43,746 nucleotides of DNA from Bacteroidia bacterium (lineage in GTDB: Bacteria; Bacteroidota; Bacteroidia; UBA4408): positions 1 through 43,746 of the forward strand of contig JBEBIC010000001.1 in the NCBI GenBank assembly GCA_040080595.1, given 5' to 3'. The notes under the pieces are model-generated. The model did not search any database, was not told the DNA's origin, and saw only the letters and a list, made by a program, of their open reading frames with translations. This document shows positions 24,477-39,714 of this stretch, one piece after another. How positions within the stretch are numbered: position 1 is the first letter of the stretch; each line of letters begins with the position of its first letter. The position numbers and the translations under genes are program-made.

Positions 24477-25172
24477 TTGAATTATTTATTTATTTTATTG
24501 GTAGCATTGCCCGTACTTGTTGGTGCGGGCTATACTTACTTGCATGCGCTTAATAAGCAATATGCTAAGCCTATATCTATATTTACGGCAGCATTACTGT
24601 TGTGTATTACGGTTATTAATTTTTTGCCCGAAGTGTTTGAACACGTACCTAATAAGTCGTATGCGGGTGTAGTTATTTTACTGGGATTATTGCTACAACT
24701 GGGCTTGGAGCGTTTTAGCAATGGCTTGGAACATGGGCATGTGCATAACGCAGGGCAAGTAAAATTTTATATAAGCTATATTGCATTATTGTTGCACAGT
24801 TTTGTGGAGGGCACACCATTACTTATAAGCGTTAATGGCAATAGTTTATTAGTAGGTTTAATAGTGCACAATGTACCTGTTACTATTATATTAATGCAAC
24901 TTATAAAGCACCTCAACTACAGCACGTTTACTAGCTTATCTCTTATAAGTATGCTAGGTATAAGCACTGTTGGCGGGGCATTTGTAGCACAATACATTAC
25001 ACAATACACACACCTAGTGTTTGATGTACATTATGTATTGGCATTTGTATGCGGTTTGTTTTTACACATTGGCACATCATTATTATTTGAATTTAATAGA
25101 GGTAAACAACAATTAGTACTAAAACTATTTTTAGTAGCCCTTGCATTGGGTTTATGTTTATTATTAAGATAA
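24477..25172 (+). CDS. ZIP-family divalent metal permease (ZupT-like)
   Basis: 231 aa with a TTG start at 24477. Multiple TM helices, a His-rich loop (LEHGHVHNAG), and LHSFVEGTP / VHNVPVT motifs resembling the ZIP metal-binding helices. Confidence 0.7.
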   Translation: MNYLFILLVALPVLVGAGYTYLHALNKQYAKPISIFTAALLLCITVINFLPEVFEHVPNKSYAGVVILLGLLLQLGLERFSNGLEHGHVHNAGQVKFYISYIALLLHSFVEGTPLLISVNGNSLLVGLIVHNVPVTIILMQLIKHLNYSTFTSLSLISMLGISTVGGAFVAQYITQYTHLVFDVHYVLAFVCGLFLHIGTSLLFEFNRGKQQLVLKLFLVALALGLCLLLR

Positions 25173-25226
25173 ATTTTTTATCTTATTTAATGTGCAACTC
25201 CCTCCTCTTTTATACTAAACTTGGTG

Positions 25227-25817
25227 TTAGTATTTAAAACTTATTCCAGCTTGTAGTAGTGGTCCGCCTAAGCCTGACTCTATGTTTAAATTTATATTGT
25301 TAGCTAAGGGGTAATTAAAACCAAAACTCATTTTAAACGCAATAGGTAATAGTTCTGATAAGTTACCTCTTTCATAATAATAATTTAGGTGTTTATTAGC
25401 ATAAAATAATTTAATGCCCACTCCAGCACAAGCGTACGTAGTTAGTTTTTCTCGTACTTTTTGAATTTTGCTAAATCTAAACACAAATCTATGTTTGCTA
25501 AATTCTTCTCTATAAATATTACCACTATTTATTGTACTTACCACACTTTGTGCAAACGTATATTCAAATCCAAAGCCTCTGTTGTTAGTCTTGTTTTGCT
25601 CCAGTTTAATACCAATATGATTAGTACTATGTAACGTGTATTTGGCAGAATATGGTTGTCCGTAGGCGTTTGTACCTTTTACATTAGTTGTTCCATTCAT
25701 AAGAAACTCTCCATTATTTAAAAAAGGCCATCCTGTAAAAATAGTTACACTGCTATTTTGAGCAACTGTAGCTCTACAAACAAATGCACCTATCAAAACT
25801 AAAAATAATGCTTTCAT
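25227..25817 (-). CDS. Small outer-membrane beta-barrel protein (8-strand size class)
   Basis: 196 aa. Signal peptide (..ATVAQ), alternating strand pattern, and a terminal ...LQAGISFKY aromatic C-terminus. Confidence 0.65.
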   Translation of the reverse strand: MKALFLVLIGAFVCRATVAQNSSVTIFTGWPFLNNGEFLMNGTTNVKGTNAYGQPYSAKYTLHSTNHIGIKLEQNKTNNRGFGFEYTFAQSVVSTINSGNIYREEFSKHRFVFRFSKIQKVREKLTTYACAGVGIKLFYANKHLNYYYERGNLSELLPIAFKMSFGFNYPLANNINLNIESGLGGPLLQAGISFKY

Positions 25818-25838
25818 AACGTTATATGTTTTTTAAAT

Positions 25839-25879
25839 AGTTATGTGTATGCCTTACTGAATAAGGCATACACATAACT
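25839..25879 (-). terminator. 18-bp perfect hairpin separating the leader-box array from the small barrel gene
   Basis: AGTTATGTGTATGCCTTA (25839-25856) pairs perfectly with TAAGGCATACACATAACT (25862-25879) around the loop CTGAA. It starts 6 nt after the stop of the 25885-27018 gene. There is no U-run. Confidence 0.6.
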
Positions 25880-25884
25880 AAAGT

Positions 25885-27018
25885 TTAATTATGGTTTTTA
25901 GCATTAAAGCCTAACGAAACACCAATTCTAAATCCACTTTTGGCAGGTACTACGTACGCATTTACAGGTAAGTTAAGTTTGCCCGATTTAAACGTACGAC
26001 CAACAGCTAGTATAAAACCCGAATTTAATTTTACATTGCCACGGCTATCCAAACGTTCAATAATTTCGTACGGATTGGCAATGCCTGCATTATCTTTATT
26101 CCACTCACCCTCTCTGCGCCAATCGCCATTGGAATCGTAATAGCCGTATGCTTTGGTAATAATATTAATGGTAGGGCCTAAGGCAAATTCCCAACCATTT
26201 ACATTGCTACGCAAACCATGCAAAAGCGAAAAGCTGGGTATAAACAAACCTTGGTCAAGCCCTGTTATCATTGGTAAAAATTCAAACAATGCTTGTACGT
26301 TTCCTTCGTTTAAATATTGTTTTTCAAACTGATAACCAAACTGAAACATTACAGGATAGCCGTCAAACCCACCTGACGCTTTTGATTGTTGTAACACTTT
26401 ACCTGTGTTACCTGTAAAGCCAACAAAACCAAGGCGAGGGCCATCAAGTTGCAAACGGTCTTGGTTAGGATTATTTGATGAATTGTCAAAGCCATCTACT
26501 TTGGTAAGTTTGGCTAACAAATTAGCATCAACAGGTTTGCCAAACATTGTTTGTACTATAATAGCTGTAAGGCTTTGCAGTTCTTCAGGCAAATTCAAAA
26601 ACTCTATAACGGTTGTTTTTTCTATGCTTTTGCTTTTTACATCTATTAAGCGGAGGGTATAAATAATAGATTTTGGATATTTTTCAATACTACCGCTAAG
26701 CATCTTGTCCGATTTTATTATTTCGCCTATTTCGGTAAGGCATATTTTCCCAAAACAGTTGTCTATTTTTACTTTGTTTTTTTCTACCATATACGCCACG
26801 TCGTACCTGTCCATTACTTGATAGTTGTCGAGTTTTTCTAACTCTATACGTACCAAATTGCCCACTTGCTCGGAGTTGGCAATACCGCTTAAACCGCCAG
26901 CATCAACAGATAGCACAGTAAGTGTTTGTTTGGGTAATAATGAACCTTGCGCATTAACAATAAACGCTGTTATGCTTAATGCAGTAGTAATTACTATTGT
27001 TTTTAGTGTAGTTTTCAT
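25885..27018 (-). CDS. P1: secreted protein with N-terminal CsgG/LpoB/FlgO-like (TolB-N-like) domain and C-terminal beta-barrel-like region; shares leader and 5' UTR with P2
   Basis: 377 aa. It starts MKTTLKTIV like P2 but ends in an SPI-type site (VNAQG). Residues ~30-150 fit the periplasmic alpha/beta pattern of CsgG/LpoB/FlgO-type domains (LTVLSVDAGGL...GNLVRIELEKLDNYQVMDRYDV...EIGEIIKSDKMLSGSIEK...YTLRLIDVKSKSI). The C-terminal ~190 aa is Gly/aromatic-rich and strand-like (GFVGFTG..., MFQFGYQFE..., FRIGVSLGFNA). Confidence 0.7.
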   Translation of the reverse strand: MKTTLKTIVITTALSITAFIVNAQGSLLPKQTLTVLSVDAGGLSGIANSEQVGNLVRIELEKLDNYQVMDRYDVAYMVEKNKVKIDNCFGKICLTEIGEIIKSDKMLSGSIEKYPKSIIYTLRLIDVKSKSIEKTTVIEFLNLPEELQSLTAIIVQTMFGKPVDANLLAKLTKVDGFDNSSNNPNQDRLQLDGPRLGFVGFTGNTGKVLQQSKASGGFDGYPVMFQFGYQFEKQYLNEGNVQALFEFLPMITGLDQGLFIPSFSLLHGLRSNVNGWEFALGPTINIITKAYGYYDSNGDWRREGEWNKDNAGIANPYEIIERLDSRGNVKLNSGFILAVGRTFKSGKLNLPVNAYVVPAKSGFRIGVSLGFNAKNHN

Positions 27019-27035
27019 TTTTATTGGGGTTTAGT
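26990..27035 (-). repeat. Shared start/5'-UTR block, copy at P1
   Basis: ATTACTATTGTTTTTAGTGTAGTTTTCATTTTTATTGGGGTTTAGT is near-identical to 27718-27765 apart from single-T indels. It covers the first 9-10 codons and ~17 nt upstream. Confidence 0.8.
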
Positions 27036-27065
27036 GTTTAACTTAAATTGTTGTTTTATAAACTA

Positions 27066-27746
27066 TTACATCACAATTAAACTTATAAGCATAAGTAGCG
27101 CAATAAGTGCAAGAGGTACTGTAGCTATAAGTGCAATTGTATTGCCTTTGTATTTTTGTTTATTTTTCTTTATAGCTATAAGAGCTATTATTCCAAAAAT
27201 GCCACCCGTTACTAAACTTGCAGCCGCAGCAAATAGGAATAAAGCTCCAAATATTACAGCTACTAAATCAGCAGTTATAATTAGTATTGCACCCAATATT
27301 GTTAGTATAGCACCAATAATTGTAAATGTTAATCCGCTAATGGCGGCAGGGTGCGTAACTATTTGTTCGGTAGCTTTAGCGGAGTTATTGGTATTATTAG
27401 GTTGCGTTCTTATATAGTCGCTAGAGTCTTGCTTAGCTATTGTATTATTACGTTTAGTAATGTGGCGAGTTATTAATGGTGGAGTAGTTTTTGGTGGAGT
27501 GATAATCATTTCGCTGTTGTTGTTTAGCATATTTGTGCTGGCAGAGGTTGTAGCTTCATCTTGTGGTTGTGTGGTAGGTAATTCACTTTCTATAGTGGCT
27601 AACTGTTGTGGTTTAACTTTATTTATTTTGCTATTCCAGTTAATGTTGTAACCGTTGCTGTACATGCGTTTTTGCACAGAGCACGATGTTAGTAGTGTTG
27701 ATGCAACTATTATTGCCATTACTATTGTTTTTAGTGTAGTTTTCAT
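27066..27746 (-). CDS. P2: leader-box membrane protein paralog, type-A C-terminal module
   Basis: 226 aa. MKTTLKTIVMAIIVASTLLTSC lipobox, then SVQKRMYSNGYNINWN. A T/N/Q/P-rich spacer follows. The C-terminus has 3-4 G/A/I/L-rich helices with a basic KKNKQKYKG loop. Confidence 0.75.
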   Translation of the reverse strand: MKTTLKTIVMAIIVASTLLTSCSVQKRMYSNGYNINWNSKINKVKPQQLATIESELPTTQPQDEATTSASTNMLNNNSEMIITPPKTTPPLITRHITKRNNTIAKQDSSDYIRTQPNNTNNSAKATEQIVTHPAAISGLTFTIIGAILTILGAILIITADLVAVIFGALFLFAAAASLVTGGIFGIIALIAIKKNKQKYKGNTIALIATVPLALIALLMLISLIVM

Positions 27747-27765
27747 TTTTTATTGGGGTTTTAGT
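27718..27765 (-). repeat. Shared start/5'-UTR block, copy at P2
   Basis: See 26990-27035. Further upstream, AGTGTTTAA(C/T)T..TTGTT..TATA is also shared. Confidence 0.8.
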
Positions 27766-27811
27766 TGGTTAATTTTGTTTAGTGTTTAATTGAAGTTGTT
27801 TATATTAAAAG

Positions 27812-28438
27812 TTAAAGCGTTAAAAAATTATCCATTGTAGATGTATTCATAAAATAGATTATCCCTATTACCAAAAGAATTGGCATTACTATAAGATATA
27901 CCCAAAATGCTTTTACTGCAAATTTTGCACGCTTTTTAGTTTTAGTTACGTGGGGGTATTTATCTATTTCTCTCAATACACGCTTTGCTAATACAAAACT
28001 TATTATTAGGGCTAAAGGCGACATTGTAAATAAAAATATTGACCCTAACGATATTGAAAATGCTACATTGGCTTCCCTTATTAGTTTTTCCTGTTTTTTT
28101 AAATCATCTTGCTCAGTTCCAATAACCGTATCCAACTTTGTTACTACATTTTTAACCGTATTTAATTTTGTTTTTTTAACAGTTGTTAAACTTATCTTTT
28201 CAGTTTTAGTAACTGTTATTTTGGTTTCGATTGATGCCACGTAGTCGTCTGTTACTAAGCTATCATTAGCTGAGGCTGTTTTAATCTTGTTACTATTTGT
28301 ATCAGTTATGATTGACTTAGGAGCATTGTGTTTATTCATATTCCACGTAAAATTATACCCAGGGCTATACATACGTTTTTGTACGCTACACGATGTAAGT
28401 GTTAGTAATACTATTGTAATTGTGAGTGTAGTTTTCAT
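27812..28438 (-). CDS. P3: leader-box membrane protein paralog, type-B C-terminal module
   Basis: 208 aa. MKTTLTITIVLLTLTSC, then SVQKRMYSPGYNFTWN. The spacer is collinear with P4 up to residue ~104. The C-terminus has helices around the loop VLAKRVLREIDKYPHVTKTKKRAKF. Confidence 0.75.
   Translation of the reverse strand: MKTTLTITIVLLTLTSCSVQKRMYSPGYNFTWNMNKHNAPKSIITDTNSNKIKTASANDSLVTDDYVASIETKITVTKTEKISLTTVKKTKLNTVKNVVTKLDTVIGTEQDDLKKQEKLIREANVAFSISLGSIFLFTMSPLALIISFVLAKRVLREIDKYPHVTKTKKRAKFAVKAFWVYLIVMPILLVIGIIYFMNTSTMDNFLTL
28127..28264 (-). repeat. Internal near-identical block shared by P3 and P4 (copy in P3)
   Basis: Encodes DSLVTDDYVASIETKITVTKTEKISLTTVKKTKLNTVKNVVTKLDT. By eye there are about a dozen mismatches over 138 nt against 28802-28939, including a ~75-nt stretch with a single mismatch. 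Confidence 0.85.
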
Positions 28439-28453
28439 TTTGAGTTTTGTTTA
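28326..28453 (-). repeat. 128-nt leader + 5'-UTR repeat, copy at P3
   Basis: Covers TAAACAAAACTCAAA-ATG plus codons 1 to ~37. It aligns without gaps to 29001-29128 and 29740-29867. The TAA of this block is the stop codon of P4. Confidence 0.85.
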
Positions 28454-29113
28454 TAATGTTGTTATAAAACTAAGAAAGTATAAAAACAGAATTATACTGG
28501 ATAATATAGCTATGATAGAGGGTACGTACCCTTTATATTTTTTATGGTTTGAAATTATTTTCACTAAAGAAAACAAACCTAATAAACCTGCAGCTAAACC
28601 AATAATTAAACCAGTAACAGCTAATACATATAATACAAGTGCAGTTAATATACCATCAACTACTACAAAATATAGTCCTAAATGGAATAGCAATAAACCT
28701 GCTAAAGCACTTATTGCACTCGGTATTGCTGCTTCATAATTTATCTTGTTACTTGTATTTGTTTGTGCATCTCTTTGGTATAGTAATTCTGTTCCATTAA
28801 TTGTATCCAACTTTGTTACTACATTTTTAAACGTATTTAATTTTGTTTTTTTAACAGTTGTTAAACTTATCTTTTCGGTTTTAGCAATAATTATTTTGGT
28901 GTCTGTTGATGCCACGTAGTCGTCTATTACTAAGCTATCATAATGTGTGGTTTCTGCAATTTGATTATTATTTGCAGCAGTTGTATTATGTGTAGGAGTA
29001 TTGTGTTTATTAGTATTCCATATAAAATTATACCCAGGGCTATACATACGTTTTTGTATGCTACACGATGTAAGTGTTAGTAGGGCTACTATAACTGCGA
29101 GTGTAGTTTTCAT
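28451..29113 (-). CDS. P4: leader-box membrane protein paralog, type-A C-terminal module
   Basis: 220 aa. MKTTLAVIVALLTLTSC, then SIQKRMYSPGYNFIWN. The C-terminus has 3-4 G/A/L-rich helices with the loop ISNHKKYKG, as in P2. Its stop lies 12 nt from the P3 start. Confidence 0.75.
   Translation of the reverse strand: MKTTLAVIVALLTLTSCSIQKRMYSPGYNFIWNTNKHNTPTHNTTAANNNQIAETTHYDSLVIDDYVASTDTKIIIAKTEKISLTTVKKTKLNTFKNVVTKLDTINGTELLYQRDAQTNTSNKINYEAAIPSAISALAGLLLFHLGLYFVVVDGILTALVLYVLAVTGLIIGLAAGLLGLFSLVKIISNHKKYKGYVPSIIAILSSIILFLYFLSFITTL
28802..28939 (-). repeat. Internal near-identical block shared by P3 and P4 (copy in P4)
   Basis: Encodes DSLVIDDYVASTDTKIIIAKTEKISLTTVKKTKLNTFKNVVTKLDT. See 28127-28264. 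Confidence 0.85.
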
Positions 29114-29128
29114 TTTGAGTTTTGTTTA
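29001..29128 (-). repeat. 128-nt leader + 5'-UTR repeat, copy at P4
   Basis: See 28326-28453. Confidence 0.85.
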
Positions 29129-29150
29129 AAGAGATGAATATTTTGCTTTT

Positions 29151-29852
29151 TTATATTACAAATGAACCTACACTCATACTAAAAAGACTTATTAACGAGC
29201 CAATAATAAGTGAAAGCCAAAATAATAATAGAGCTATGTTAGCATATTGTTTTGCTGTACGCACCGTTTCCTCTAAATCGTATTCATTATTCACTTTATG
29301 AGGGTTTTCTTTTATTAATTTTAATGTTTTTTTAGCCCATGATTTAGCTAAAAAAGCCGTAACTAACGATGTAGTATAAATTAGTGAAAAAACGAGAATG
29401 AAAATTTCGTTATTAGTATAGTTTAAAAAAAACACATACATAATTCCACCCGTAATAACACCTATTAATGATGCAATTGCGATTTGTTTACTAATTTTTC
29501 CAGTTTTAACAATGTATTTAATTTGTTTAGCACTAACTGTTTTTTTACTTATAAATAGAGTTGAGTCTAACAGTGTATTTTTCTTATGTCTTTTTTGTGG
29601 TAATATATATACGATTTTGGTTTTTTCTTTTTTTGGTAACTCCACATAATCATTAGTGTTTGCTAAAACAGTACTTTCTTCAACACTATTATTTACGCTA
29701 TCTATTTTATATTCAGTTACATTGTTATAAGTTGGGTTATTATGTTTATTAGTATTCCAAGTAAAATTATACCCAGAGCTATACATACGTTTTTGCACAT
29801 TACACGATGCAAGCGTTAGTAATGCTATTATAACAGTGAGTGTAGTTTTCAT
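29151..29852 (-). CDS. P5: leader-box membrane protein paralog, type-B C-terminal module (first gene of the array)
   Basis: 233 aa. MKTTLTVIIALLTLASC, then NVQKRMYSSGYNFTWN. A K/N-rich spacer follows. The C-terminus has helices around the loop FLAKSWAKKTLKLIKENPHKVNNEYDLEETVRTAKQY. Confidence 0.75.
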   Translation of the reverse strand: MKTTLTVIIALLTLASCNVQKRMYSSGYNFTWNTNKHNNPTYNNVTEYKIDSVNNSVEESTVLANTNDYVELPKKEKTKIVYILPQKRHKKNTLLDSTLFISKKTVSAKQIKYIVKTGKISKQIAIASLIGVITGGIMYVFFLNYTNNEIFILVFSLIYTTSLVTAFLAKSWAKKTLKLIKENPHKVNNEYDLEETVRTAKQYANIALLLFWLSLIIGSLISLFSMSVGSFVI

Positions 29853-29867
29853 TTTGAGTTTTGTTTA
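29740..29867 (-). repeat. 128-nt leader + 5'-UTR repeat, copy at P5
   Basis: See 28326-28453. Confidence 0.85.
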
Positions 29868-29878
29868 ATTTTCTGGTA

Positions 29879-29886
29879 CAAACATA
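29879..29886 (-). promoter_or_regulatory. Candidate -7 box (TATGTTTG on the minus strand) for the P5-P1 array
   Basis: CAAACATA on the + strand is the reverse complement of TAnnTTTG. It ends 26 nt upstream of the P5 ATG. I found no comparable box in the 12-65-nt gaps between P5, P4, P3, P2 and P1. Confidence 0.4.
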
Positions 29887-29988
29887 TACCACCACAGTGG
29901 GCTATTAAAACGGTTTTGTAGCCCTGCTTTTTTAAAAGTTGCATAAAACAATAATTTGGAGTACTAAAAAATGTAAAAGCTCAATTAT

Positions 29989-30003
29989 TTGCAATAAATG
30001 CAA
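29989..30003. promoter_or_regulatory. Operator-like palindrome, site 1 (TTGCAATAAATGCAA)
   Basis: Half-sites TTGCA/TGCAA separated by 5 nt. Identical to site 3 and the reverse complement of site 2. It overlaps a TTTG (29988-29991) in about the right place for a -33 element of the regulator promoter. Confidence 0.55.
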
Positions 30004-30014
30004 CTGCCCCCTTA

Positions 30015-30022
30015 TACTTTTG
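30015..30022 (+). promoter_or_regulatory. Candidate -7 box (TACTTTTG) for the HTH regulator gene
   Basis: Exact TAnnTTTG match 50 nt upstream of the ATG at 30073. It overlaps operator-like site 2. Confidence 0.45.
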
Positions 30023-30034
30023 CATTTATTGCAA
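30020..30034. promoter_or_regulatory. Operator-like palindrome, site 2 (TTGCATTTATTGCAA, flipped)
   Basis: Starts exactly 31 nt after site 1 and overlaps the -7 box. Confidence 0.55.
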
Positions 30035-30050
30035 ATAATAATTACCTTAG

Positions 30051-30065
30051 TTGCAATAAATGCAA
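30051..30065. promoter_or_regulatory. Operator-like palindrome, site 3 (TTGCAATAAATGCAA)
   Basis: Starts exactly 31 nt after site 2 and ends 7 nt before the regulator ATG, in the leader region. Confidence 0.55.
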
Positions 30066-30072
30066 ATAAAAT

Positions 30073-31077
30073 ATGCCTAAAAATATACAAGTAGAAATGC
30101 AGGAAGTGTTTGTACAGCACTTAAAACAAAGCGTACCCACCAATGTTTCGCTTGCCGATGATATTGCCGAACTCCTAAACATTAGCAACGACAGTGCTTA
30201 CCGCCGTTTGCGTTGCCAAACTGAGTTTACGCTTGATGAAACCTATAAAATATGTACCAAGTATCGCTTATCGTTAGATTCTATATTTTCCAACAAAGGC
30301 AATATGGTTACGTGCCATTATAACAAGCTAACCAACTCGGCACAAAGTTTTGAAACGTATTTAACCAGCCTATTGCATCAAATACAACAAATGCAAAAAA
30401 CTGAAGGTGCTAAGCTCATTTATGCTGCCGAAGAAGTGCCTATTGTGCGTTCGTTTCATTCAGCTAAATTGGCCGCTTTTAAGCTATTTTACTGGCAACG
30501 CTCGGTTTTAAACGTACCCGAATATCAACACGAAAAATTTACGTGGGACGTTATTCCCCAAGCACAGTTAGATATAGCACAGCAAATAAACACAGGCTAT
30601 ACACAAATAGAAAGTACCGAAATATGGACAAGCGATACCATACAAACCAATATAAAACAGGTAGAATATTATTTTGAGTCGGGGGCTTTTAAACACCGCG
30701 AAGATGCTATAGCAGTGCTTATGGAGTTAAAAACAATGTTGCAATTAATGAGTAATGATGCCGAAATAGAAAATAAAAACACGAATATAAATGGCACAGT
30801 AGTACCATTTAGCCTATATTACAGCGATTTGATGATTGGTACTAACTGCATACACATTAATAGTAACGATAGCTTACTGTCGTACATATCGTTTAACTCG
30901 CTTAACTCATTAGCTACCGCCAACCAAGAATTTTGTGGAGAAATAGACCAATGGATGAAAAATTTAATAAAAAAATCAACCTTAATAAGTGGTGTTGCCG
31001 AAAAACAACGTTTTCAGTTTTTTAACAAAGCCCACAAAGCCATTGACGATTGTATAGACCGCATCAATAATAGTTAA
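30073..31077 (+). CDS. Helix-turn-helix transcriptional regulator with large uncharacterised C-terminal domain
   Basis: 334 aa. Residues ~24-72 (VSLADDIAELLNISNDSAYRRLRCQTEFTLDETYKICTKYRLSLDSIF) have the XRE/cI-type HTH layout. The remaining ~260 aa carries no motif I recognise. It is transcribed divergently from the array. Confidence 0.75.
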   Translation: MPKNIQVEMQEVFVQHLKQSVPTNVSLADDIAELLNISNDSAYRRLRCQTEFTLDETYKICTKYRLSLDSIFSNKGNMVTCHYNKLTNSAQSFETYLTSLLHQIQQMQKTEGAKLIYAAEEVPIVRSFHSAKLAAFKLFYWQRSVLNVPEYQHEKFTWDVIPQAQLDIAQQINTGYTQIESTEIWTSDTIQTNIKQVEYYFESGAFKHREDAIAVLMELKTMLQLMSNDAEIENKNTNINGTVVPFSLYYSDLMIGTNCIHINSNDSLLSYISFNSLNSLATANQEFCGEIDQWMKNLIKKSTLISGVAEKQRFQFFNKAHKAIDDCIDRINNS

Positions 31078-31104
31078 ACACATAAAACATATTTTGACTT
31101 AAAT

Positions 31105-31139
31105 AAAAAAGAGAAGCAAATATTGCTTCTCTTTTTTTG
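31105..31139 (+). terminator. Intrinsic terminator of the regulator gene
   Basis: GAGAAGCAA (31111-31119) pairs with TTGCTTCTC (31123-31131). The stem can be extended by the flanking A-run/T-run and is followed by TTTTTTT. Confidence 0.7.
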
Positions 31140-31357
31140 TGTGGGAGATACTGAGTTTGAACCACTGCCCCCCCAATTATAAACAGGGAAGTGCTGAACC
31201 AATTAATTAAACTATTGTTTCGTAAAAAGGAAAACTACTGCATTAACTTATAAAATTGCTTTTTATTGTACCACAGTGTAAAAATATAGTTGGTATTTAT
31301 TTATACTAAAACAATGCAACCCTCGTTATTACTATCGTATTAACCAACTTTAAAAAA

Positions 31358-32260
31358 ATGAAAACGAACAAAATTCTTTCAACAGCAGCGTTATTAACTA
31401 TTGCACGTATAGTAGTTGCGCAGGAACAAACGCAACAACTAAAACAACTAAAAATAACAGACTTGTATGTGCACAATGGTTTTTTTGTAAATAGCACAAC
31501 TAACGGTAGTTTACAAGATTTTAAAACGCTTGCTCCACAATCTGTATTACTAAAAAATGATTTGAGTGCTTACTCACAATCCAATGGGTATTCGTTTGAT
31601 GGCAGAAGTATGCTTAGTGCATTGCTTGGTGTACAACTTAGAGATAAAAACAAAACAGGTTATAGAAAATCGCCTTTGTTGCGCTTAGGCGTTGGCTATT
31701 ATTCGGTGAGTGGCATCGCAACTAATTTTTACACCACAAAAACAATTACTTACGACACGCTAAAATCAACTAAATCTAGTGAAGTAACTTACTTGGATTC
31801 AGTAAAAAGAAAAAATTACAACATGGATTATTCAGCTAATCAATTACGGTTAGATGCTTCGTTAATTTTTAGAACCAATGCAGATGCACGCTGGTCGGCA
31901 TTTGCGGGCATTGGCATTAATGCGGGGGCATCGTTAAACTCAAGTACAAGAATTAGTTACTATGAAACAGAAGACAAAGAAGCAAGGAATACCGCAGGAG
32001 AGCATTATACAACCAATTATTACTCAAGCACGGTAGTAAATAGTAAGAGTGAAATAGCCAACAACAAAACCAATTTTACCTGCGCCGCTTATGTTCCTGT
32101 TGGTGTTGATTTTAGAATAGGCAAAAAAAGAGCGTTTTGGAAACATACACATTTGTTTTACGAGTTGCGCCCAAGCGTTGCTATTACTGCTATACCTGAG
32201 TTACGCACCTTTGCTGATGCAGGTGTACAACAAGGTATTGGGTTGCGAGTTACGTTGTAA
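31358..32260 (+). CDS. Outer-membrane beta-barrel protein, function unknown
   Basis: 300 aa. Signal peptide (..RIVVAQ), then repeated strand-like segments rich in Y/G/S/T (LRLGVGYYSVSG, LDASLIFRTN, FAGIGINAGASL, CAAYVPVGVDFRIG, VQQGIGLRVTL). Confidence 0.6.
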   Translation: MKTNKILSTAALLTIARIVVAQEQTQQLKQLKITDLYVHNGFFVNSTTNGSLQDFKTLAPQSVLLKNDLSAYSQSNGYSFDGRSMLSALLGVQLRDKNKTGYRKSPLLRLGVGYYSVSGIATNFYTTKTITYDTLKSTKSSEVTYLDSVKRKNYNMDYSANQLRLDASLIFRTNADARWSAFAGIGINAGASLNSSTRISYYETEDKEARNTAGEHYTTNYYSSTVVNSKSEIANNKTNFTCAAYVPVGVDFRIGKKRAFWKHTHLFYELRPSVAITAIPELRTFADAGVQQGIGLRVTL

Positions 32261-32276
32261 GTAGTCTAAAATAAAA

Positions 32277-32303
32277 TCGCCCTAACACAATGTGTTAGGG
32301 CGA
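32277..32303. terminator. 27-nt palindromic hairpin, copy 1 (TCGCCCTAACACAATGTGTTAGGGCGA)
   Basis: 12-bp perfect stem with a 3-nt loop, between convergent genes (31358-32260 + and 32333-34450 -). It is identical over all 27 nt to 34734-34760. Confidence 0.65.
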
Positions 32304-32332
32304 TTATTAATTAAAGCTATTTATGTGTACTC

Positions 32333-34450
32333 TTACTTACTTATAGCTAAGCGTTGTACTGCCTGTCCTTGATTAGTAATTGTTTTAACAAAATAAATCC
32401 CGTTAGCATCATTACTTAAATCAATAGTTTGTTTGCCTGCGTTTATAGTGTTAGTCATTATAACTCGTCCTAAAGCATCAGTAATAATTACTTGCGTAGT
32501 TACATTTGCATTAATAACAAAAATACCTGTGCTTGGGTTTGGATTAATTGTAATTGATTGCACTTTATTTTTAGCTGATAAACCAACTGGTGTTAATGAT
32601 ACACACGTACTTGTATCCGAACAGTTTCCTATAGTTACTATTACAGCATAACTACCACTTACAGTTGCAACATAATATTGATTTGTAGCTCCTGCTATTG
32701 CAGAGTCTCCCATTGTACAATCTATCCATTGATAAGTTGCACCTGTGGCGTTTGCCGTTACAGTATCTTGATTAACGGTAGTGGTTACATCTATAACTGT
32801 ACCTACTGTTAGGTTAGTAGTTACTATACTGTCGCAACCGTTTATAGCCATTAGTGTATCGGTGTAAGTTCCTGTTGTGTTATAAACATTAGTTCCTACT
32901 GTAGTTGATTGCCCTGCACACAATACTAACGTTTGTGAGCTTGACAAAGGCGTGCAGCTATTTAAAATAGGGCGAATAACATGTGATTTAGCAAAAGTAG
33001 CACCAAAATTTTCAACAGGTGTCCACGCTTGTCCTGTCCAACTAGCGAATGCTGTATTTGGAGTAAATATGTCGTTAGTTACAGCTAAACCAATATTGGT
33101 ATTGTACTCTGTTATTGCTACTAAATAGTTGCCAGGTTGTAACATTAGGTTAGCGCCTCCTATAGCTTTTATAGCATGTGTGCGTAATACTAGCCCTAAG
33201 GTGTCTGCAGGAGTAAATACATAATTAGCCGATGTGCCTATAATAGCATTAGGTAAGCCCGCTGCAAAATCATAAATAACTACTTTAGTTGAATCGCCAA
33301 CGCCATTTCCATTTCCAGAGCCAGGTTTATTTAAACCAACTAACACCGAATCTATGTAAGTAGCTGCATTTACAGTAAACATAGTACCTAAATAACCAGT
33401 AGGGCCTGCGCCTATTCCATAAGCGGTAGATACAGTACCATTATCTCTAGCGTACTCTCCATTACTTACCGTAAATGTATAAGAACTAGTGTCGGCTGCT
33501 GTAGCTGTATTATTAGTACACGATGATATGTATTGTACCATATAATCGCCAGTGGTTGTGGGTGTAAATGTTCCTGTATTAATTACAGCGTTGGCTGAAA
33601 TAGCCAAACTTACAGTTGCCGAAGTTGCTGTAAATACGGGTGTAGTAAAATTAGGTACTTTGTATACATTGGCGGTTAAAGTAGCGTCGGTAGTTGCTGT
33701 AGCTCCATTGTTTGTAACGGTTGATTCCATAGGAATAGCCACAACTTGTGTAAGAGGGACAATTGTATATGGCATTGGGTTATTTGCTACTATAACATCA
33801 GCATTGCCACCTGCAGGTGTATAGGTAAAATCATCAATACCTATATTGTCGCTAGCAGTACCAGTAGGACCTCCATTAGTTACATAGTATCTAAATGCCA
33901 TGCGCCCAGTCATAGCCATTGGTAAGCCACTTACGATTAGTGTATATTTTGTCCAAACGCTAGGGTAGCTACCTGTGCCTGTAAGAGTTAATGTTGGGTT
34001 AATGTCCAACAATAGCGTAGAAAAATCTCCAACAGAAGATGCTGTAGTACCTACATTAGTACTAGTTCCATTTACGGACAATCGTACTTGCATTCTATCT
34101 GCATAAGTAGGTACATCTACCGTTCTACTATAAAACGTAACTACATCTCCATTGTTAAACGTGCGTGCAGGTGTTATTAACCAACAACTAATATCTCCAG
34201 CACTAGCAACCATATTATAATTACCATTAATAAACCCTGTACCCGCATTTGGAGCAAAAGGAGTAGTACCTGTTCCTTGAAACCAATCAGTAGTTGTACC
34301 TATTGGGGTACTTAGGTTGTTTGTTGCCCAGCCACTCGTGGCAAGGGTTGTTATGTCATCAAACGATTCGGTAATCGCCTGTGCCGATACGCTTGAAGTA
34401 ATAGCAAGACCTGCGCCTATGCTTAACATGTTTTTGTAGATTTTTTTCAT
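32333..34450 (-). CDS. T9SS-secreted protein with N-terminal choice-of-anchor-J-like domain
   Basis: 705 aa with a signal peptide (..SVSAQA). The N-terminal block ESFDDITTLATSGWATNNLSTPIGTTTDWFQG...GDISCWLITPARTF resembles the choice-of-anchor J domain as I remember it. The middle is Thr/Asn-rich and Ig-like, with Cys-containing repeats. Type-A T9SS CTD (ITINPNPSTGIFVIN...GIYFVKTITNQGQAVQRLAISK). Confidence 0.8.
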   Translation of the reverse strand: MKKIYKNMLSIGAGLAITSSVSAQAITESFDDITTLATSGWATNNLSTPIGTTTDWFQGTGTTPFAPNAGTGFINGNYNMVASAGDISCWLITPARTFNNGDVVTFYSRTVDVPTYADRMQVRLSVNGTSTNVGTTASSVGDFSTLLLDINPTLTLTGTGSYPSVWTKYTLIVSGLPMAMTGRMAFRYYVTNGGPTGTASDNIGIDDFTYTPAGGNADVIVANNPMPYTIVPLTQVVAIPMESTVTNNGATATTDATLTANVYKVPNFTTPVFTATSATVSLAISANAVINTGTFTPTTTGDYMVQYISSCTNNTATAADTSSYTFTVSNGEYARDNGTVSTAYGIGAGPTGYLGTMFTVNAATYIDSVLVGLNKPGSGNGNGVGDSTKVVIYDFAAGLPNAIIGTSANYVFTPADTLGLVLRTHAIKAIGGANLMLQPGNYLVAITEYNTNIGLAVTNDIFTPNTAFASWTGQAWTPVENFGATFAKSHVIRPILNSCTPLSSSQTLVLCAGQSTTVGTNVYNTTGTYTDTLMAINGCDSIVTTNLTVGTVIDVTTTVNQDTVTANATGATYQWIDCTMGDSAIAGATNQYYVATVSGSYAVIVTIGNCSDTSTCVSLTPVGLSAKNKVQSITINPNPSTGIFVINANVTTQVIITDALGRVIMTNTINAGKQTIDLSNDANGIYFVKTITNQGQAVQRLAISK

Positions 34451-36028: not shown

Positions 36029-37321
36029 CTACTTAGCAATACTAAATTTAGTACTCGTAGTAGTGGTTTTTATAACGTAAATACCATTTGTTAAGTGTGC
36101 AACATCAACTGTATTTACGCCATTTACTAGCTGTAATTCCAACACTTTATTACCCATATAGTTGTATATGTATATTTTTTGATTTTGATTGCTCTGTAGC
36201 GTAATTAACCCTTGCGATGGATTAGGATAAACGCTTATAGCATTGGTTTCGCTTTTATAATTAATAGCATTGGTACAACTCAATTTATTAATATAATCCC
36301 ACAACACATTATCAAACGCTGAGCCAGCAAAACTAAAGCCTCCTGCACTATTGCCCTGTCTTATTACTACTAAATTTTGGCTTGGTACTACGTATATTTT
36401 TTGGTCGTTTTTACCTAATGCACAATACATATCGTTAGGAGCATTGGGTATTAACGAGCCTGGCACAGCTATTTGTGAGAATGGTGCCATTGCGCTACTT
36501 TTTCCATTTAACCACCACAAGTAACCATACGAATTATTTAGTGCCTGCGAGCTATTAATCATAGCATTAAAATACGATGTATCTTTCATTAATGTATCCG
36601 TTTTCCAAATTCCTTTATTTAAACTCAATAAGCCAAAGCGAGCCATATCTCGTGCTTTGCTATAATATATTTGCTGGCTCCATGCTCCGCCCATTCCTAT
36701 TTTAGATTTTATCCAGTTGGTTGTAATTGCATTGTACGATAGCCCAACAGCAGCACTTACCACATCTTGCACATGGTAATAAGCACCTGTGTGATAGCCC
36801 CAACGTGTGCCTGCATCAGCTTTGTATATTAAACAGGCTTTGGCGGTATCGAGGTGGTCGCAAGGTAAGGGTGGTTGGTCATCTAAACCACTATTCATAC
36901 TTAATAAATGTTTAATGGTTATTAAATTTTCTTTAGCTAAAAGCTCCGAAGTCCAGCCAGTACCAATGTACTGCGACACCTTGTTGTTGATGTTGATATA
37001 ACCTTTTTGTTGTGCTACACCTGTTATAAAACTAGCTAAGCTCTTACTTGCCGATGCCCAATACCACAATGAATCTTGTGTGTAAGTGCCAAAATATTTT
37101 TCTAATACTATTTTTCCATCTTTTAATACGATGAATGATTTAGAATTTTTGGCTTGCAAATAATTATACAACGAATCAACACGAGGTTGGCAATACCCAA
37201 GTAATGATGGCGACAAGGTATCCCACGTAGTACCAACAGATGGTGGAAAATACAAACTTTGAGCTTGTGCGTAAGCTACTGAAATGCAAAATAAGAAAGG
37301 AAGTAAAATTAATTTTTTCAT
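36029..37321 (-). CDS. T9SS-secreted serine hydrolase of the beta-lactamase/PBP4-like family (start corrected)
   Basis: The track ORF runs to 37558, but the first 79 codons are junk-like and would overlap the DPP-IV start. The ATG at 37319-37321 gives MKKLILLPFLFCISVAYAQAQ, a clean signal peptide. SxxK nucleophile motif (WASASKSLASF). T9SS CTD (ISVYPNPSQGLITLQ...GIYVIKTTTTSTKFSIAK). Confidence 0.8.
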   Translation of the reverse strand: MKKLILLPFLFCISVAYAQAQSLYFPPSVGTTWDTLSPSLLGYCQPRVDSLYNYLQAKNSKSFIVLKDGKIVLEKYFGTYTQDSLWYWASASKSLASFITGVAQQKGYININNKVSQYIGTGWTSELLAKENLITIKHLLSMNSGLDDQPPLPCDHLDTAKACLIYKADAGTRWGYHTGAYYHVQDVVSAAVGLSYNAITTNWIKSKIGMGGAWSQQIYYSKARDMARFGLLSLNKGIWKTDTLMKDTSYFNAMINSSQALNNSYGYLWWLNGKSSAMAPFSQIAVPGSLIPNAPNDMYCALGKNDQKIYVVPSQNLVVIRQGNSAGGFSFAGSAFDNVLWDYINKLSCTNAINYKSETNAISVYPNPSQGLITLQSNQNQKIYIYNYMGNKVLELQLVNGVNTVDVAHLTNGIYVIKTTTTSTKFSIAK

Positions 37322-37512
37322 AAGTGTTGATGTAGTTTTAAATAAAAGTAATAGTTTTTTAGTAATAACGATACTCATTTTAACGAACCATTTTTTTTTA
37401 ATTGTACTTGCAAAATAAAGCGTGTGTAAATATAATTTATTACACGCTTTTTGTTTTTTTAAACAGTAATACACTACATTCGTATAATCATAATTTATAA
37501 CACAATTAAAAA

Positions 37513-39714
37513 ATGAACTTCGTAAAACTAATAACAACATTTGCCTTAGTAATAGCAATTACAACTATACAAGCACAAAAACAAAATATTACGCTAGAGG
37601 ATATTTGGAAAGGGAGTCAGTTAAGAGCCAAAAATATAGATGGGCTTAATAATATGAATGATGGCGAGCATTACACCGTGTTGGAAGATGACGGCGAACA
37701 TGCTGTTATTAATAAATACAATTACAAAACAGGCAAAAAAACTGCCACTTTATTATCATCGGCTACGTTGCACAATCCTATTAACAACGAAGAAATTTTG
37801 TTTGATGATTATGCCTTTGATGCTACTGAAACCAAGCTAATACTTACTACCAACAAAACATCAATATACCGCCATTCGTTTGATGCAGCGTATGTAATAG
37901 TGGACTTAACAACCAACAAAGTAGAATTATTAGACGATGTTATAAAACAACAATTACCCGCATTTAACCCGCAAAGTACCGCCATTGCTTATGTGCAAAA
38001 AAACAATTTATTTGTAAAAAAAATAGGCACTAACGCTGCCCAACAAATAACGTTTGACGGTAAGCGCAACAACATAATAAACGGCACTACCGACTGGGTA
38101 TATGAAGAGGAGTTTGGTTTTGATAGAGCTTTTTATTGGAGCAACGATGGTAAAAAAATAGCCTATTTTAAATTTGACGAAAGCGCAGTAAAAGAGTTTA
38201 ACATGACTATGTTTACAGGGCTTTACCCAGCTGATAATAAATTTAAGTATCCTAAAGCAGGCGAAAAAAATAGTGTAGTAACAATACATATTTACGATGT
38301 AGAAAAAGGCACAACTACCAAAGCCAACATTGATGCGGCGCAGTACGAATACATACCCCGCATAGCATGGCATCCATTGGGCAAGCTTATGGTAAGTACC
38401 CTAAATCGTGCGCAAAACAAATTAGATATTTACACTATTGATGCCACCAATGGCAATGCTAGCAAGTGGTACACGCGTACCGATGAAAAATACATTGACA
38501 TAAGCGAAGGACAAGAAAACTTTTTTTACCCTACCGCCGATGGCAAAAATGTACTTATGCTTTCCGACGAAGATGGCTACATACATCTATACAACTACGA
38601 CTATGCCACAGGTGCTAAAACCCTCATTACCAAAGGTAATTTTGATGTAAAAAAACTACATGGTATAGACGAAAAAAACAAACGTATCTATTACAGCAGT
38701 ACCGAAGTGCACCCAAGCGAAGACCACACCTATGTGATAGACTTTAAGGGAACTAACAAGCGCCAACTCACTACTAAGAAAGGTGCTAACACAGTTAGTT
38801 TTAGTGCTAATTACGCTTACTTTATATGTACCAATAGTGCATTTGGTGTTCCGTTTAATATTGCATTGTACGAAACTAAAACAGGCAAGGCGGTACGCGT
38901 GTTAGAAGATAACGCAACACTATTATCAACCATAACAAACATAAACACAAGCCCTGTAGAAATGATAACCGTAAAAACGACTGATGGTACGTTACTAAAC
39001 GGTTATATGATAAAACCTACCAATTTTGATGCAACTAAAAAATACCCAGTGTTTCAAACCTATTATGGCGGGCCAGGTAAGGCAGAGGTAGAAAGCGAAT
39101 GGGGTGGAGCAAACTATTGGTGGCATCAGTTTTTGGCACAAAAAGGCTACATTGTAGTGTGTGTTGATAATAGAGGCACGCCTAATAGAGGTAACGCATT
39201 TAAAAAAGCTACGTACAAAAATTTAGGTAAACTGGAAGTGGAGGATCAAATAGAAGTAGCAAAATATTTAGGTACATTACCCTATGTTGATAAAACCCGC
39301 ATAGCCTGTATGGGCTGGAGTTTTGGCGGATATTTAACTTCATTGTGTATGACCAAAGGCGCAGCTTATTTTAAAGCAGGTATAGCCGTAGCACCTGTTA
39401 CCAATTGGCGTTATTACGATAGTATTTATACAGAGCGTTTCCTACTAACGCCACAAGATAATGCTAAGGGCTATGATGATAATTCTCCCATAAATTTTAC
39501 GGATAGTTTGAAAGGCGCATTCCTATTAGTACACGGCAGTGCCGATGATAATGTGCATGTACAAAACTCCATGGAAATGAGTACCGCCCTTGTAAAATCT
39601 AACAAACCGTTCGACCAAATGATATACACCAATAAAGCACATGGCATATCGGGCGGAAACACTCGTTTGCATTTATACACCAAAATGTTCGATTTTTTAC
39701 AAAAGAATTTATAG
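37513..39714 (+). CDS. Dipeptidyl-peptidase IV (S9B prolyl peptidase)
   Basis: 733 aa. Signal peptide, DPP-IV propeller region (TTDWVYEEEFGF), and an S9 catalytic domain with GWSFGGY, GSADDNVH and NKAHG. Confidence 0.9.
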   Translation: MNFVKLITTFALVIAITTIQAQKQNITLEDIWKGSQLRAKNIDGLNNMNDGEHYTVLEDDGEHAVINKYNYKTGKKTATLLSSATLHNPINNEEILFDDYAFDATETKLILTTNKTSIYRHSFDAAYVIVDLTTNKVELLDDVIKQQLPAFNPQSTAIAYVQKNNLFVKKIGTNAAQQITFDGKRNNIINGTTDWVYEEEFGFDRAFYWSNDGKKIAYFKFDESAVKEFNMTMFTGLYPADNKFKYPKAGEKNSVVTIHIYDVEKGTTTKANIDAAQYEYIPRIAWHPLGKLMVSTLNRAQNKLDIYTIDATNGNASKWYTRTDEKYIDISEGQENFFYPTADGKNVLMLSDEDGYIHLYNYDYATGAKTLITKGNFDVKKLHGIDEKNKRIYYSSTEVHPSEDHTYVIDFKGTNKRQLTTKKGANTVSFSANYAYFICTNSAFGVPFNIALYETKTGKAVRVLEDNATLLSTITNINTSPVEMITVKTTDGTLLNGYMIKPTNFDATKKYPVFQTYYGGPGKAEVESEWGGANYWWHQFLAQKGYIVVCVDNRGTPNRGNAFKKATYKNLGKLEVEDQIEVAKYLGTLPYVDKTRIACMGWSFGGYLTSLCMTKGAAYFKAGIAVAPVTNWRYYDSIYTERFLLTPQDNAKGYDDNSPINFTDSLKGAFLLVHGSADDNVHVQNSMEMSTALVKSNKPFDQMIYTNKAHGISGGNTRLHLYTKMFDFLQKNL

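Follow-up and report, generated by a model that had tools for sequence, protein, structure and literature searches.

In a 43,746-nucleotide stretch of DNA from the metagenome-assembled genome of a Bacteroidia bacterium (assembly GCA_040080595.1, contig JBEBIC010000001.1, positions 1 to 43,746; hereafter, the window), four consecutive minus-strand genes, P5, P4, P3 and P2, encode proteins that begin with a lipoprotein-type leader followed, directly after its cysteine, by a basic and aromatic segment of about 16 residues, termed here the box. This box heads a large, uncurated protein family with a four-part architecture: a lipoprotein-type signal, the box, a linker that is variable in sequence and constrained in length, and a membrane hairpin. 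What is new is the box, the strict pairing of this box with hairpin tails and a linker of constrained length, on none of which a paper was found in a literature search for DUF4190; already known are the tail domains, which are catalogued domains of unknown function (DUFs). Taken as a whole, the explanation given below, which combines this architecture with a lipoprotein topology and a preferred role as a tether, has about an even chance of being correct.

The original prediction, made from the sequence alone, had described four paralogs with a common lipobox leader and box, and the list of open reading frames (ORFs) bears this out at 29852-27066, with exactly the coordinates first given (Table 1). 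The alignment of P2-P5 contains 19 invariant positions within residues 1-40 (MKTTL, L, S-C, QKRMYS, GYN and WN), and the head of each protein consists of MKTTL, a short hydrophobic stretch, L-(T/A)-S-C and then (S/N)-(V/I)-Q-K-R-M-Y-S-x-G-Y-N-(F/I)-x-W-N; relative to P3-P5, the P2 leader has a 5-residue insertion. A six-frame regular-expression scan found the box confined to the P2-P5 ORFs across the 43.7 kb of the window, which is far beyond chance. The spacers between the end of the box and the first hydrophobic run are 91, 95, 92 and 95 amino acids (aa) long in the four proteins; those of P5 and P2 have no sequence relation to those of P3 and P4, yet are of similar length. Comparison with the orthologous locus L002 gave ratios of nonsynonymous to synonymous substitution (dN/dS, or omega) of 0.34 for P3 and 0.35 for P2, the head and tail being more constrained than the spacer, as against 0.04, 0.06 and 0.11 for the neighbouring genes P1, REG and OMP300. 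These values, which are 3-8 times those of the neighbours and below 1 throughout, indicate together with the constraint on head and tail that the array genes are coding and under purifying selection, relaxed 3-8-fold compared to the neighbouring genes. P5, P4, P3 and P2 are real paralogous genes, and the plus-strand ORFs lying over them (127 and 150 aa) were treated as non-coding shadows. The public NCBI annotation apparently starts P5 at Val19 (protein P0137, 215 aa, beginning MQKRMYSS...) and so leaves out the conserved leader; since this leader and 15 upstream bases are common to P4 and P3, a gene model with the full 233-aa ORF is more plausible.

Among 5.8 billion proteins, only two non-self close homologs were found, on contigs L001 and L002, both of which are syntenic. 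In line with the original prediction, the array proteins fell into no curated family: P2-P5 had no above-threshold match in Pfam, NCBIfam, PADLOC or PHROGs and no match among PDB sequences. P5 weakly matches NCBIfam CCC_membrane (E 3.5e-4), and weak Pfam matches to TauE, DUF2232 and Claudin_2, all below cut-off, were rejected as reflecting hydrophobic composition.

The head alone was more revealing. An exhaustive HMMER search with a 40-position, head-only profile against 1.84 billion cluster representatives (clusters at 50% identity) returned 362 representatives at E<=1e-3, nearly all of them 190-260 aa long and matched at the extreme N-terminus. The consensus of the 132 best matches, taken in fixed register, is [LI][LF][ST]S-C-[ST]-[IV]-[QE]-K-R-x-Y-x-x-G-Y-[HN]-[IV]-x-W-[NK]; counted from the Cys as +1, K+5 and G+11 are kept in all 132, R+6 and Y+8 in 127 each, W+16 in 128 and Y+12 in 124. 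All four window proteins carry this family box directly after the lipobox Cys, and no Pfam or NCBIfam model covers it in the 140 members scanned. Moreover, every full-length member (117/117) ends in a hydrophobic C-terminal tail, the 15 members that lack one being fragments of <=152 aa. Since the box is always coupled to a C-terminal hairpin, it is not a generic lipoprotein N-terminus but the head of one fixed architecture. The original prediction had set its proposal against just such a generic N-terminus, widely scattered and unconnected with these tails; the wide scatter was indeed found, the box being present in at least 362 clusters, but the coupling to the hairpin holds in 117 of 117 cases. 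The leader and box also form the most constrained segment when the homologs of loci L006 and L007 are compared (omega 0.08). Tandem arrays, which had been suggested as the layout of interest, are the exception in this family: the sampled members in L009, L013 and L014 are solitary genes in unrelated housekeeping neighbourhoods. The taxonomy of the family is based on neighbours with domains of the type IX secretion system (T9SS) in L013, L014 and the window.

Other searches added little. A word-indexed protein search with a 40-aa head alignment yielded one candidate and no matches. A scan of genome contigs with lineage-strict box patterns, which is uninformative on the looser family box, encountered only SGGYNFTWN in a prophage capsid-like ORF of a Pyrinomonadaceae metagenome-assembled genome, and this was discarded as a chance match. 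A metagenome scan found one divergent, single-copy member, on the 2.7-kb metagenome contig L004 (1966-2598); it reads MKNFTLLLVSILLLFASC-SVQKRMYRPGFTVQW..., has a hairpin tail and adjoins a small lipoprotein and a helix-turn-helix (HTH)-like ORF, and its annotated start is probably 22 codons too early. Seven other members (P0134, P0136, P0139, P0146, P0149, P0156 and P0213) contain within the linker a conserved Cys-pair module, roughly C-D-(V/I)-I...G..I.(A/V)-K-V-x-E-I....I-K-Y-K-x-C, which is absent from the window proteins.

The two alternating kinds of tail that had been predicted are also present, in the order B-A-B-A along the array (type B in P5 and P3, type A in P4 and P2). Type A is rich in G/A/I/L and has a KKNKQKYKG or SNHKKYKG loop, type B has a LAK...(Y/N)PH loop, and each window tail comprises 2-3 uncharged hydrophobic runs; no similarity between the two types was detected by profile-profile comparison. 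Across 140 family members, Pfam assigns the tails to DUF4190 (57), TM2 (23), DUF2207_C (22) and Pmp3 (8), and NCBIfam NF040945 matches 29. None of P2-P5 matches the DUF4190 model PF13828, even at E<=1. In hhalign comparisons, the scores of which are to be read cautiously since hydrophobic composition inflates the matching of transmembrane (TM) segments, the type-A tails matched the DUF4190 tails of the family with a probability of 97% (E 1e-10, 60 columns) and in register through the loop (IKKNKQKYKG versus IKxNPExYKGKG), and the type-B tails matched them weakly, with a probability of 80% (E 1.4e-5, 41 columns). The resemblance to DUF4190 that the original prediction had sensed in P3 and P5 is therefore real, but it is strongest in P2 and P4 and weak where it was suggested. 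On the basis of these profiles, the P2 and P4 tails are best classed as divergent DUF4190 hairpins and the P3 and P5 tails as a second class. The P2 and P4 tails resemble DUF4190 and the 'CCC motif membrane protein' NF040945 down to the loop I-K-x-N-x-x-x-Y-K-G; they differ in having an extra hydrophobic segment, P3 and P5 are only weakly similar, and the DUF4190 domain excludes the N-terminal box. We know of no function for DUF4190. The TM2-tailed box members (23/140) have the layout of TM2-domain proteins (PF05154; metazoan TM2D1-3/almondex), whereas the window proteins have no TM2 domain; the TM2D proteins, for their part, are without the box and are not lipoproteins.

The leader bears on where these proteins reside. 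In the window, it consists of MKTTL, a core of 11-14 residues and L-T/A-S-C, which by a rule-based reading conforms to the lipobox pattern [LVI][ASTVI][GAS]C. Of the 132 family members, 94 have a hydrophobic core of 13-15 residues; the n-region contains 1-2 K/R and the Cys, at position 16-24, is invariant, with Ser at -1 in 121/132 (otherwise a residue of the Ser/Ala/Gly class) and L/F/I/V at -3. A core of 13-15 residues is of signal-peptide length and too short for a membrane span.

In Bacteroidota, where lipoprotein sorting is only partly understood, no post-Cys signal other than the acidic surface-export signal has to our knowledge been described, and the box would be a second, much longer conserved motif after a putatively lipidated Cys. 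This lipoprotein export signal (LES) of Bacteroidota surface lipoproteins takes the forms C-X-K-(D/E)2-X, SDDDD and SDDFE (PMC5080379). As had been pointed out, the K-R of the box is the opposite: the first 16 positions after the Cys in the window proteins (C-S/N-V/I-Q-K-R-M-Y) contain no acidic residue, and none therefore lies at +3 to +6, where the LES has its own. The box resembles the LES in that a short conserved stretch comes immediately behind the Cys that is lipidated or predicted to be so, an arrangement suggestive of sorting or docking; it differs in being basic/aromatic rather than acidic, in its length of ~16 rather than ~5 residues and in its constant pairing with a C-terminal hairpin.

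The tails give a second indication. The last tail loop of the family members has a median of 3 K/R, versus 0 after the last helix, so that, according to the positive-inside rule, this loop would be cytoplasmic and the C-terminus outside; for two-helix tails (as in P3) and TM2 tails, a cytoplasmic loop would in turn put the linker in the periplasm. In the published description, TM2 proteins start with a signal sequence, continue with an extracellular region that is divergent and end in two TM helices, the loop of which is intracellular (PMC8714088). From the end of the box to the first tail helix, the family linker measures at least 84 aa (median 109, interquartile range 102-129), and its sequence is unconserved, with a composition of K 13%, N 9%, S 9%, E 8% and T 8% and a median net charge of +4; the head-only search imposed no bias of protein length on these statistics. 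A floor on length without a constraint on sequence is what a spacer or ruler function predicts. Modelling of the tails, proposed in the original prediction, was carried out with AlphaFold2 (AF2) on P3, using the family alignment (predicted local distance difference test, pLDDT, 70), and it recovered a helical hairpin tail but not a confident structure for the box: the model has a leader helix, coil at 17-92, with the lowest confidence at 48-70, and helices at 93-136, 142-159 and 165-207, that is, a long juxtamembrane helix from 93 and then a helical hairpin. Judged from these sequence features, it is quite probable that the proteins are processed by signal peptidase II (SPII) and lipidated at the Cys, with the box and linker in the periplasm and the hairpin in the inner membrane, its basic loop facing the cytoplasm.

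The history of the array can be read from its DNA. The head is a direct repeat of ~130-145 nt, which includes 15 identical upstream bases, TAAACAAAACTCAAA, and the P4/P3 repeat runs on through the spacer (342 nt, 86% identity; 29128-28788 versus 28453-28113). There are two classes of 5' cassette, TAAACAAAACTCAAA-ATG in P5, P4 and P3 and CTAAACCCCAATAAAA-ATG-MKTTLKTIV in P2 and in P1, the gene that follows the array, and P2 has its 5' untranslated region and first 9 codons in common with P1. These two classes, with P2 sharing that of P1, imply that the leader is a recombination substrate, probably copied from or to the P1 signal peptide. The comparison with L002 is instructive in this respect. 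The flanks are ~95% identical and the alignment on the REG side breaks at 29738, the end of the P5 head, to resume at the P3 start; L002 holds three array genes versus four in the window. Its first gene joins a P5-like head (92% identity over the first 38 codons) to a P4/P3-like spacer (87%) and to an A-type tail without DNA similarity to any window tail. Between the P5, P4 and P3 heads, synonymous divergence (dS) is 0.14-0.39, whereas two adjacent L002 heads have a dS of 0.00 and are 96% identical; the P3 orthologs are only 90% identical, and heads that are closer to each other than orthologs are constitute a signature of gene conversion. The P2 head is saturated at synonymous sites relative to P3-P5 and still keeps the box, which means that selection at the protein level maintains it. 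Tandem duplication, recombination mediated by the leader and gene conversion thus gave rise to the array, in a slot bounded by the conserved promoter and REG on one side and by P1 on the other. As the other sampled members of the family are solitary, the array is a lineage-specific expansion and not a family trait; an ancestral A+B pair is plausibly the source of its four genes.

What such proteins might do is best approached through a phage precedent. The unimolecular spanin (u-spanin) gp11 of phage T1 has an N-terminal lipoylation signal together with a transmembrane domain (TMD) at its C-terminus, is proposed to join the inner membrane to the outer one, and has a periplasmic segment for which an extended, non-globular form is predicted (PMC6139136). 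The window proteins likewise combine an N-terminal lipoprotein signal with a C-terminal membrane domain, a combination that, on this analogy, would not be new as such. They differ from the u-spanin in having tails of 2-4 helices rather than a single TMD, in the absence of sequence similarity and in belonging to a chromosomal regulator/outer-membrane-protein operon rather than to a phage lysis cassette with holin and endolysin. The mechanism preferred here, by analogy and with a probability somewhat short of even, is that of a tether or adaptor that would span the periplasm with the topology of a u-spanin. The lipidated N-terminus and the box would be brought to the outer membrane, at its inner face, the hairpin would stay in the inner membrane and the linker would cross the periplasm. 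The box could then be a conserved docking element at the outer-membrane end, possibly for the LpoB/TolB-N-like domain of P1 or for the barrel of the nearby protein OMP196, and the interchangeable tails could be alternative inner-membrane ends, expressed under the control of the putative regulator REG. The tether is preferred because of the minimum length of the linker, the precedent of T1 gp11 and the presence in the operon of P1, an outer-membrane protein with a protein-binding domain. In its widest form, this proposal would have cellular links between inner and outer membranes, each made of a single polypeptide, throughout the Bacteroidota, with the linker as a length ruler, the box as a periplasm-facing sorting or docking signal and the array as a set of REG-controlled, interchangeable tethers that work with P1; so much taken together is rather unlikely.

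Several points weigh against this topology and the tether built on it. A linker of ~90 residues, a third of which is predicted to be helical, can only just cross the periplasm, and, for a protein whose multi-helix tail sits in the inner membrane, transfer of the Lol type is unproven. So close to a Sec cleavage site, the basic residues at +5/+6 are unusual. The canonical DUF4190 tails have three hydrophobic segments which, if all three span the membrane, put the linker in the cytoplasm, and the L006/L007 homologs have an extra, translated N-terminal TM segment before the 'signal peptide' (omega 0.21), an arrangement that fits poorly with processing by SPII. In the AF2 model, neither box nor linker has a confident structure (box pLDDT about 65). 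Finally, in L005, L015 and L016, P1 is found without REG or box genes, and the other sampled box proteins are solitary, for which reasons a specific interaction between the box and P1 is a conjecture.

Another possibility, nearly as likely as the tether and itself doubtful, is that both anchors lie in the inner membrane, so that the linker forms a periplasmic loop and the box serves as an interfacial element or as a retention element of the Lol-avoidance type. The C-terminal hairpin would fix the protein in the inner membrane in any case, the box is rich in K/R and Y/W, which are typical of membrane interfaces, and it is strictly coupled to inner-membrane tails; nor is there a family-wide outer-membrane partner, the solitary genes being found in unrelated contexts. 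A loop, however, would call for no lower limit on its length, yet the shortest linker measures 84 aa; a protein held by 2-4 helices should need no retention signal of 16 residues; and the u-spanin precedent shows that a C-terminal TMD is compatible with targeting of the lipid end to the outer membrane. A preprint on LolA/LolB of Bacteroidetes makes no mention of avoidance, retention or an inner membrane lipoprotein. It could also be that the leader is not cleaved at all and acts as a signal anchor, a TM helix that leaves the K-R box on the cytoplasmic side, as the original prediction had allowed. More basic residues follow the hydrophobic segment than precede it (K-R and the K-rich flank), the linkers are net positive, with the median of +4 given above, the leader is internal in the L006/L007 homologs, behind the further TM segment, and three-segment DUF4190 tails would suit a cytoplasmic linker. 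What makes this anchor improbable is the core of 13-15 residues, too short for a stable membrane span; the invariant Cys after Ser/Ala/Gly (mostly Ser) with L/F/I/V at -3, a lipobox which a plain anchor leaves unexplained; and the TM2-tailed members and two-helix tails with a basic connecting loop, which require the linker to be outside.

The original prediction had also likened the locus to diversifying ones such as arrays of immunity or exclusion proteins. Diversification is indeed evident, in the four versus three genes of window and L002, a replaced tail, gene conversion and a raised dN/dS; the context expected of immunity or exclusion is absent. A protective array, in which alternative inner-membrane proteins would, for instance, confer immunity to membrane-targeting toxins or exclude phage, with tails diversified by selection, would account for gene gain and loss at the strain level, for one tail without DNA similarity despite flanks that are 95% identical, for gene conversion at the conserved head and for dN/dS values 3-8 times those of the neighbours. 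Small membrane proteins with several helices are typical immunity proteins. Against this, no toxin, effector, recombinase or mobile element lies near the array in the window, PADLOC gave no match (which also disposes of known defence systems), PHROGs gave nothing meaningful and the box pattern had 0 matches in 2.9 million viral contigs, so that an origin in phage, spanins or superinfection exclusion was likewise rejected. Moreover, dN/dS is below 1 throughout, the genes sit within a conserved regulator/outer-membrane-protein operon, and the other sampled members of the family are single-copy genes in housekeeping neighbourhoods. A protective array is accordingly the least probable of these explanations, and very improbable.

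Together, the box, the hairpin and the length-constrained linker bear the marks of an element dedicated to sorting or docking, or of a tether across the envelope. They provide a working architecture for a share of the unannotated DUF4190, TM2 and Pmp3 proteins of the phylum, and the box pattern is directly testable in cultivable relatives, which makes it a lead for the envelope biology of the Bacteroidota. If the proteins are plain inner-membrane lipoproteins of minor function, what is left is a new, uncurated domain and a local gene expansion. The array itself, which illustrates gene diversification by recombination at a conserved 5' cassette, is of modest interest; it is the pattern at the level of the family that offers a concrete, testable lead.

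Table 1. Positions in the window of the array genes, their tails and the associated operon features.
Feature	Position	Strand	Description
P5	29151..29852	-	233 aa; leader 1-16, lipobox LASC, Cys17; box 29754-29804; unique spacer
P5 type-B tail	about 29154-29483	-	LAKSWAKKTLKLIKENPH loop
P4	28451..29113	-	220 aa; leader, LTSC; box 29015-29065; spacer common to P3
P4 type-A (DUF4190-like) tail	about 28454-28732	-	SNHKKYKG loop
P3	27812..28438	-	208 aa; leader, LTSC; box 28340-28390; spacer common to P4
P3 type-B two-helix tail	about 27815-28066	-	LAKRVLREIDKYPH loop
P2	27066..27746	-	226 aa; longer leader MKTTLKTIVMAIIVASTLLTSC, Cys22; box 27633-27683; unique spacer
P2 type-A (DUF4190-like) tail	about 27069-27350	-	KKNKQKYKG loop
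Repeated 5' cassette DNA	28113..29868	-	copies 29868-29725, 29129-28986, 28453-28325; 86-89% identity
REG	30073..31077	+	334 aa; divergent, regulator-like gene; N-terminal HTH; Pfam BetR E 0.0012, below cut-off
Operator-like element	29989..30065		three exact copies of TTGCATTTATTGCAA: 29989-30003 (-), 30020-30034 (+), 30051-30065 (-)
Putative -7 promoter box TATGTTTG	29879..29886	-	27 nt upstream of the P5 ATG; inside block AAAACCGTTT...TATATGTTTG
P1	25885..27018	-	377 aa; last operon gene; signal of signal peptidase I type, MKTTLKTIV...VNAQG
19-bp perfect hairpin, 5-nt loop	25838..25880		directly after the P1 stop, before OMP196; short T-run
OMP196	25227..25817	-	196 aa; predicted small outer-membrane beta-barrel; weak NCBIfam PorG-like match

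Around the array, the features collected in Table 1 suggest an operon under the control of REG. The intergenic region between REG and P5 is 220 nt long. The copies of TTGCATTTATTGCAA, spaced by 31 nt and alternating in orientation, lie just upstream of the REG start codon and nowhere else in the window; with <=3 mismatches allowed, the window has 24 matches versus 7.9 expected from shuffles. The repeats are identical in L002, and TTTGCAA half-sites occupy equivalent positions in L005, L006, L007 and L010; the triple repeat is a likely operator. The putative promoter box at 29879..29886 (TAtgTTTG) fits TAnnTTTG, which we take to be the Bacteroidota -7 consensus, and the promoter block recurs 5' of the operon's leading gene in L002, L005 and L010; L006/L007 have it in the form TAATTTTG. 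The gaps P5-P4, P4-P3, P3-P2 and P2-P1 are 37, 12, 65 and 47 nt, no minus-strand terminator-like site was found within the array, and the hairpin after P1 likely marks the end of the transcription unit, as a putative terminator. The small gaps, the lack of an internal terminator and this hairpin make a single REG-controlled transcript likely, in which the array would probably be co-transcribed with P1. Rfam gave nothing above gathering score in 24500-32500.

P1 has 1,644 homologs of 53-99% identity, all unannotated and from uncultured Bacteroidota, and neither P1 nor REG had a match among PDB sequences. In the AF2 model (mean pLDDT 82), residues about 30-160 form a periplasmic alpha/beta domain like those of LpoB-C, TolB-N and GNA1162 and residues about 190-377 an 8-stranded outer-membrane barrel like those of Ail, OmpX and OmpA. 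Foldseek places P1 with 4q6l (TM-score on the target 0.69), 4hrv (0.60) and 3qra (0.59), with probability 1.0 for the alpha/beta domain, which shows similarity of fold only and not of function; this domain superposes on LpoB-C (4q6l), GNA1162 (4hrv) and the TolB N-domain (7mx5). P1 differs from LpoB and TolB-N in having no sequence-level similarity to them and in being anchored by its own beta-barrel rather than by a lipid.

REG, the promoter block and P1 are kept around the variable slot in L002, L005, L006, L007 and L010, the REG homologs being 65-96% identical, divergent and upstream of the operon. In L005 (P1 76% identical), the slot is empty. In L006 and L007/L008 (P1 67-72%), it contains a single homolog of type B, 270/271 aa long, the box of which is degenerate and reads SSC-STSKFLNRKYTFGRF. 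In these homologs (L006 5976-6788; L007 5974-6789), the extra hydrophobic segment and a basic loop precede the leader and SSC and are under purifying selection; the hydrophobic segment ahead of the lipobox-like Cys is therefore an internal one. A 55-aa MKTTTLKK ORF (L006 6822-6989; L007 6814-6981), with an MKTT-type leader and a short Cys-containing tail, separates the slot gene from P1; it could encode a small membrane protein or be what is left of a leader cassette. In L010-L012 (P1 74%, REG 71%), the order is a duplicated OMP196 homolog, an A-type box protein, P1 and a second, B-like box protein. The first gene of this REG-controlled operon (L010 6665-7987) encodes a 440-aa protein made of two tandem copies of OMP196, both halves of which are matched by OMP196 in blastp (E 4e-15 and 8e-11). 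Lastly, in L015 and L016 (P1 54-61%), neither REG nor box genes are adjacent to P1. A membrane protein of ~240 aa with the motif VNYTRKxNHFFVFF follows P1 in L007 (8140-8871), L015 (7364-8038) and L016 (7774-8508); it thus occurs also in lineages without REG/box genes, and it does not adjoin P1 in the window.

The rest of the window contains housekeeping genes, T9SS cargo and a giant protein with SprB repeats. The last is a 1,616-aa SprB/PKD/fn3-repeat protein (14378-19228), which is accompanied by two proteins with T9SS C-terminal sorting domains (32333-34450 and 36029-37558), one of them of the beta-lactamase fold, and this set is consistent with a T9SS-bearing Bacteroidota genome.

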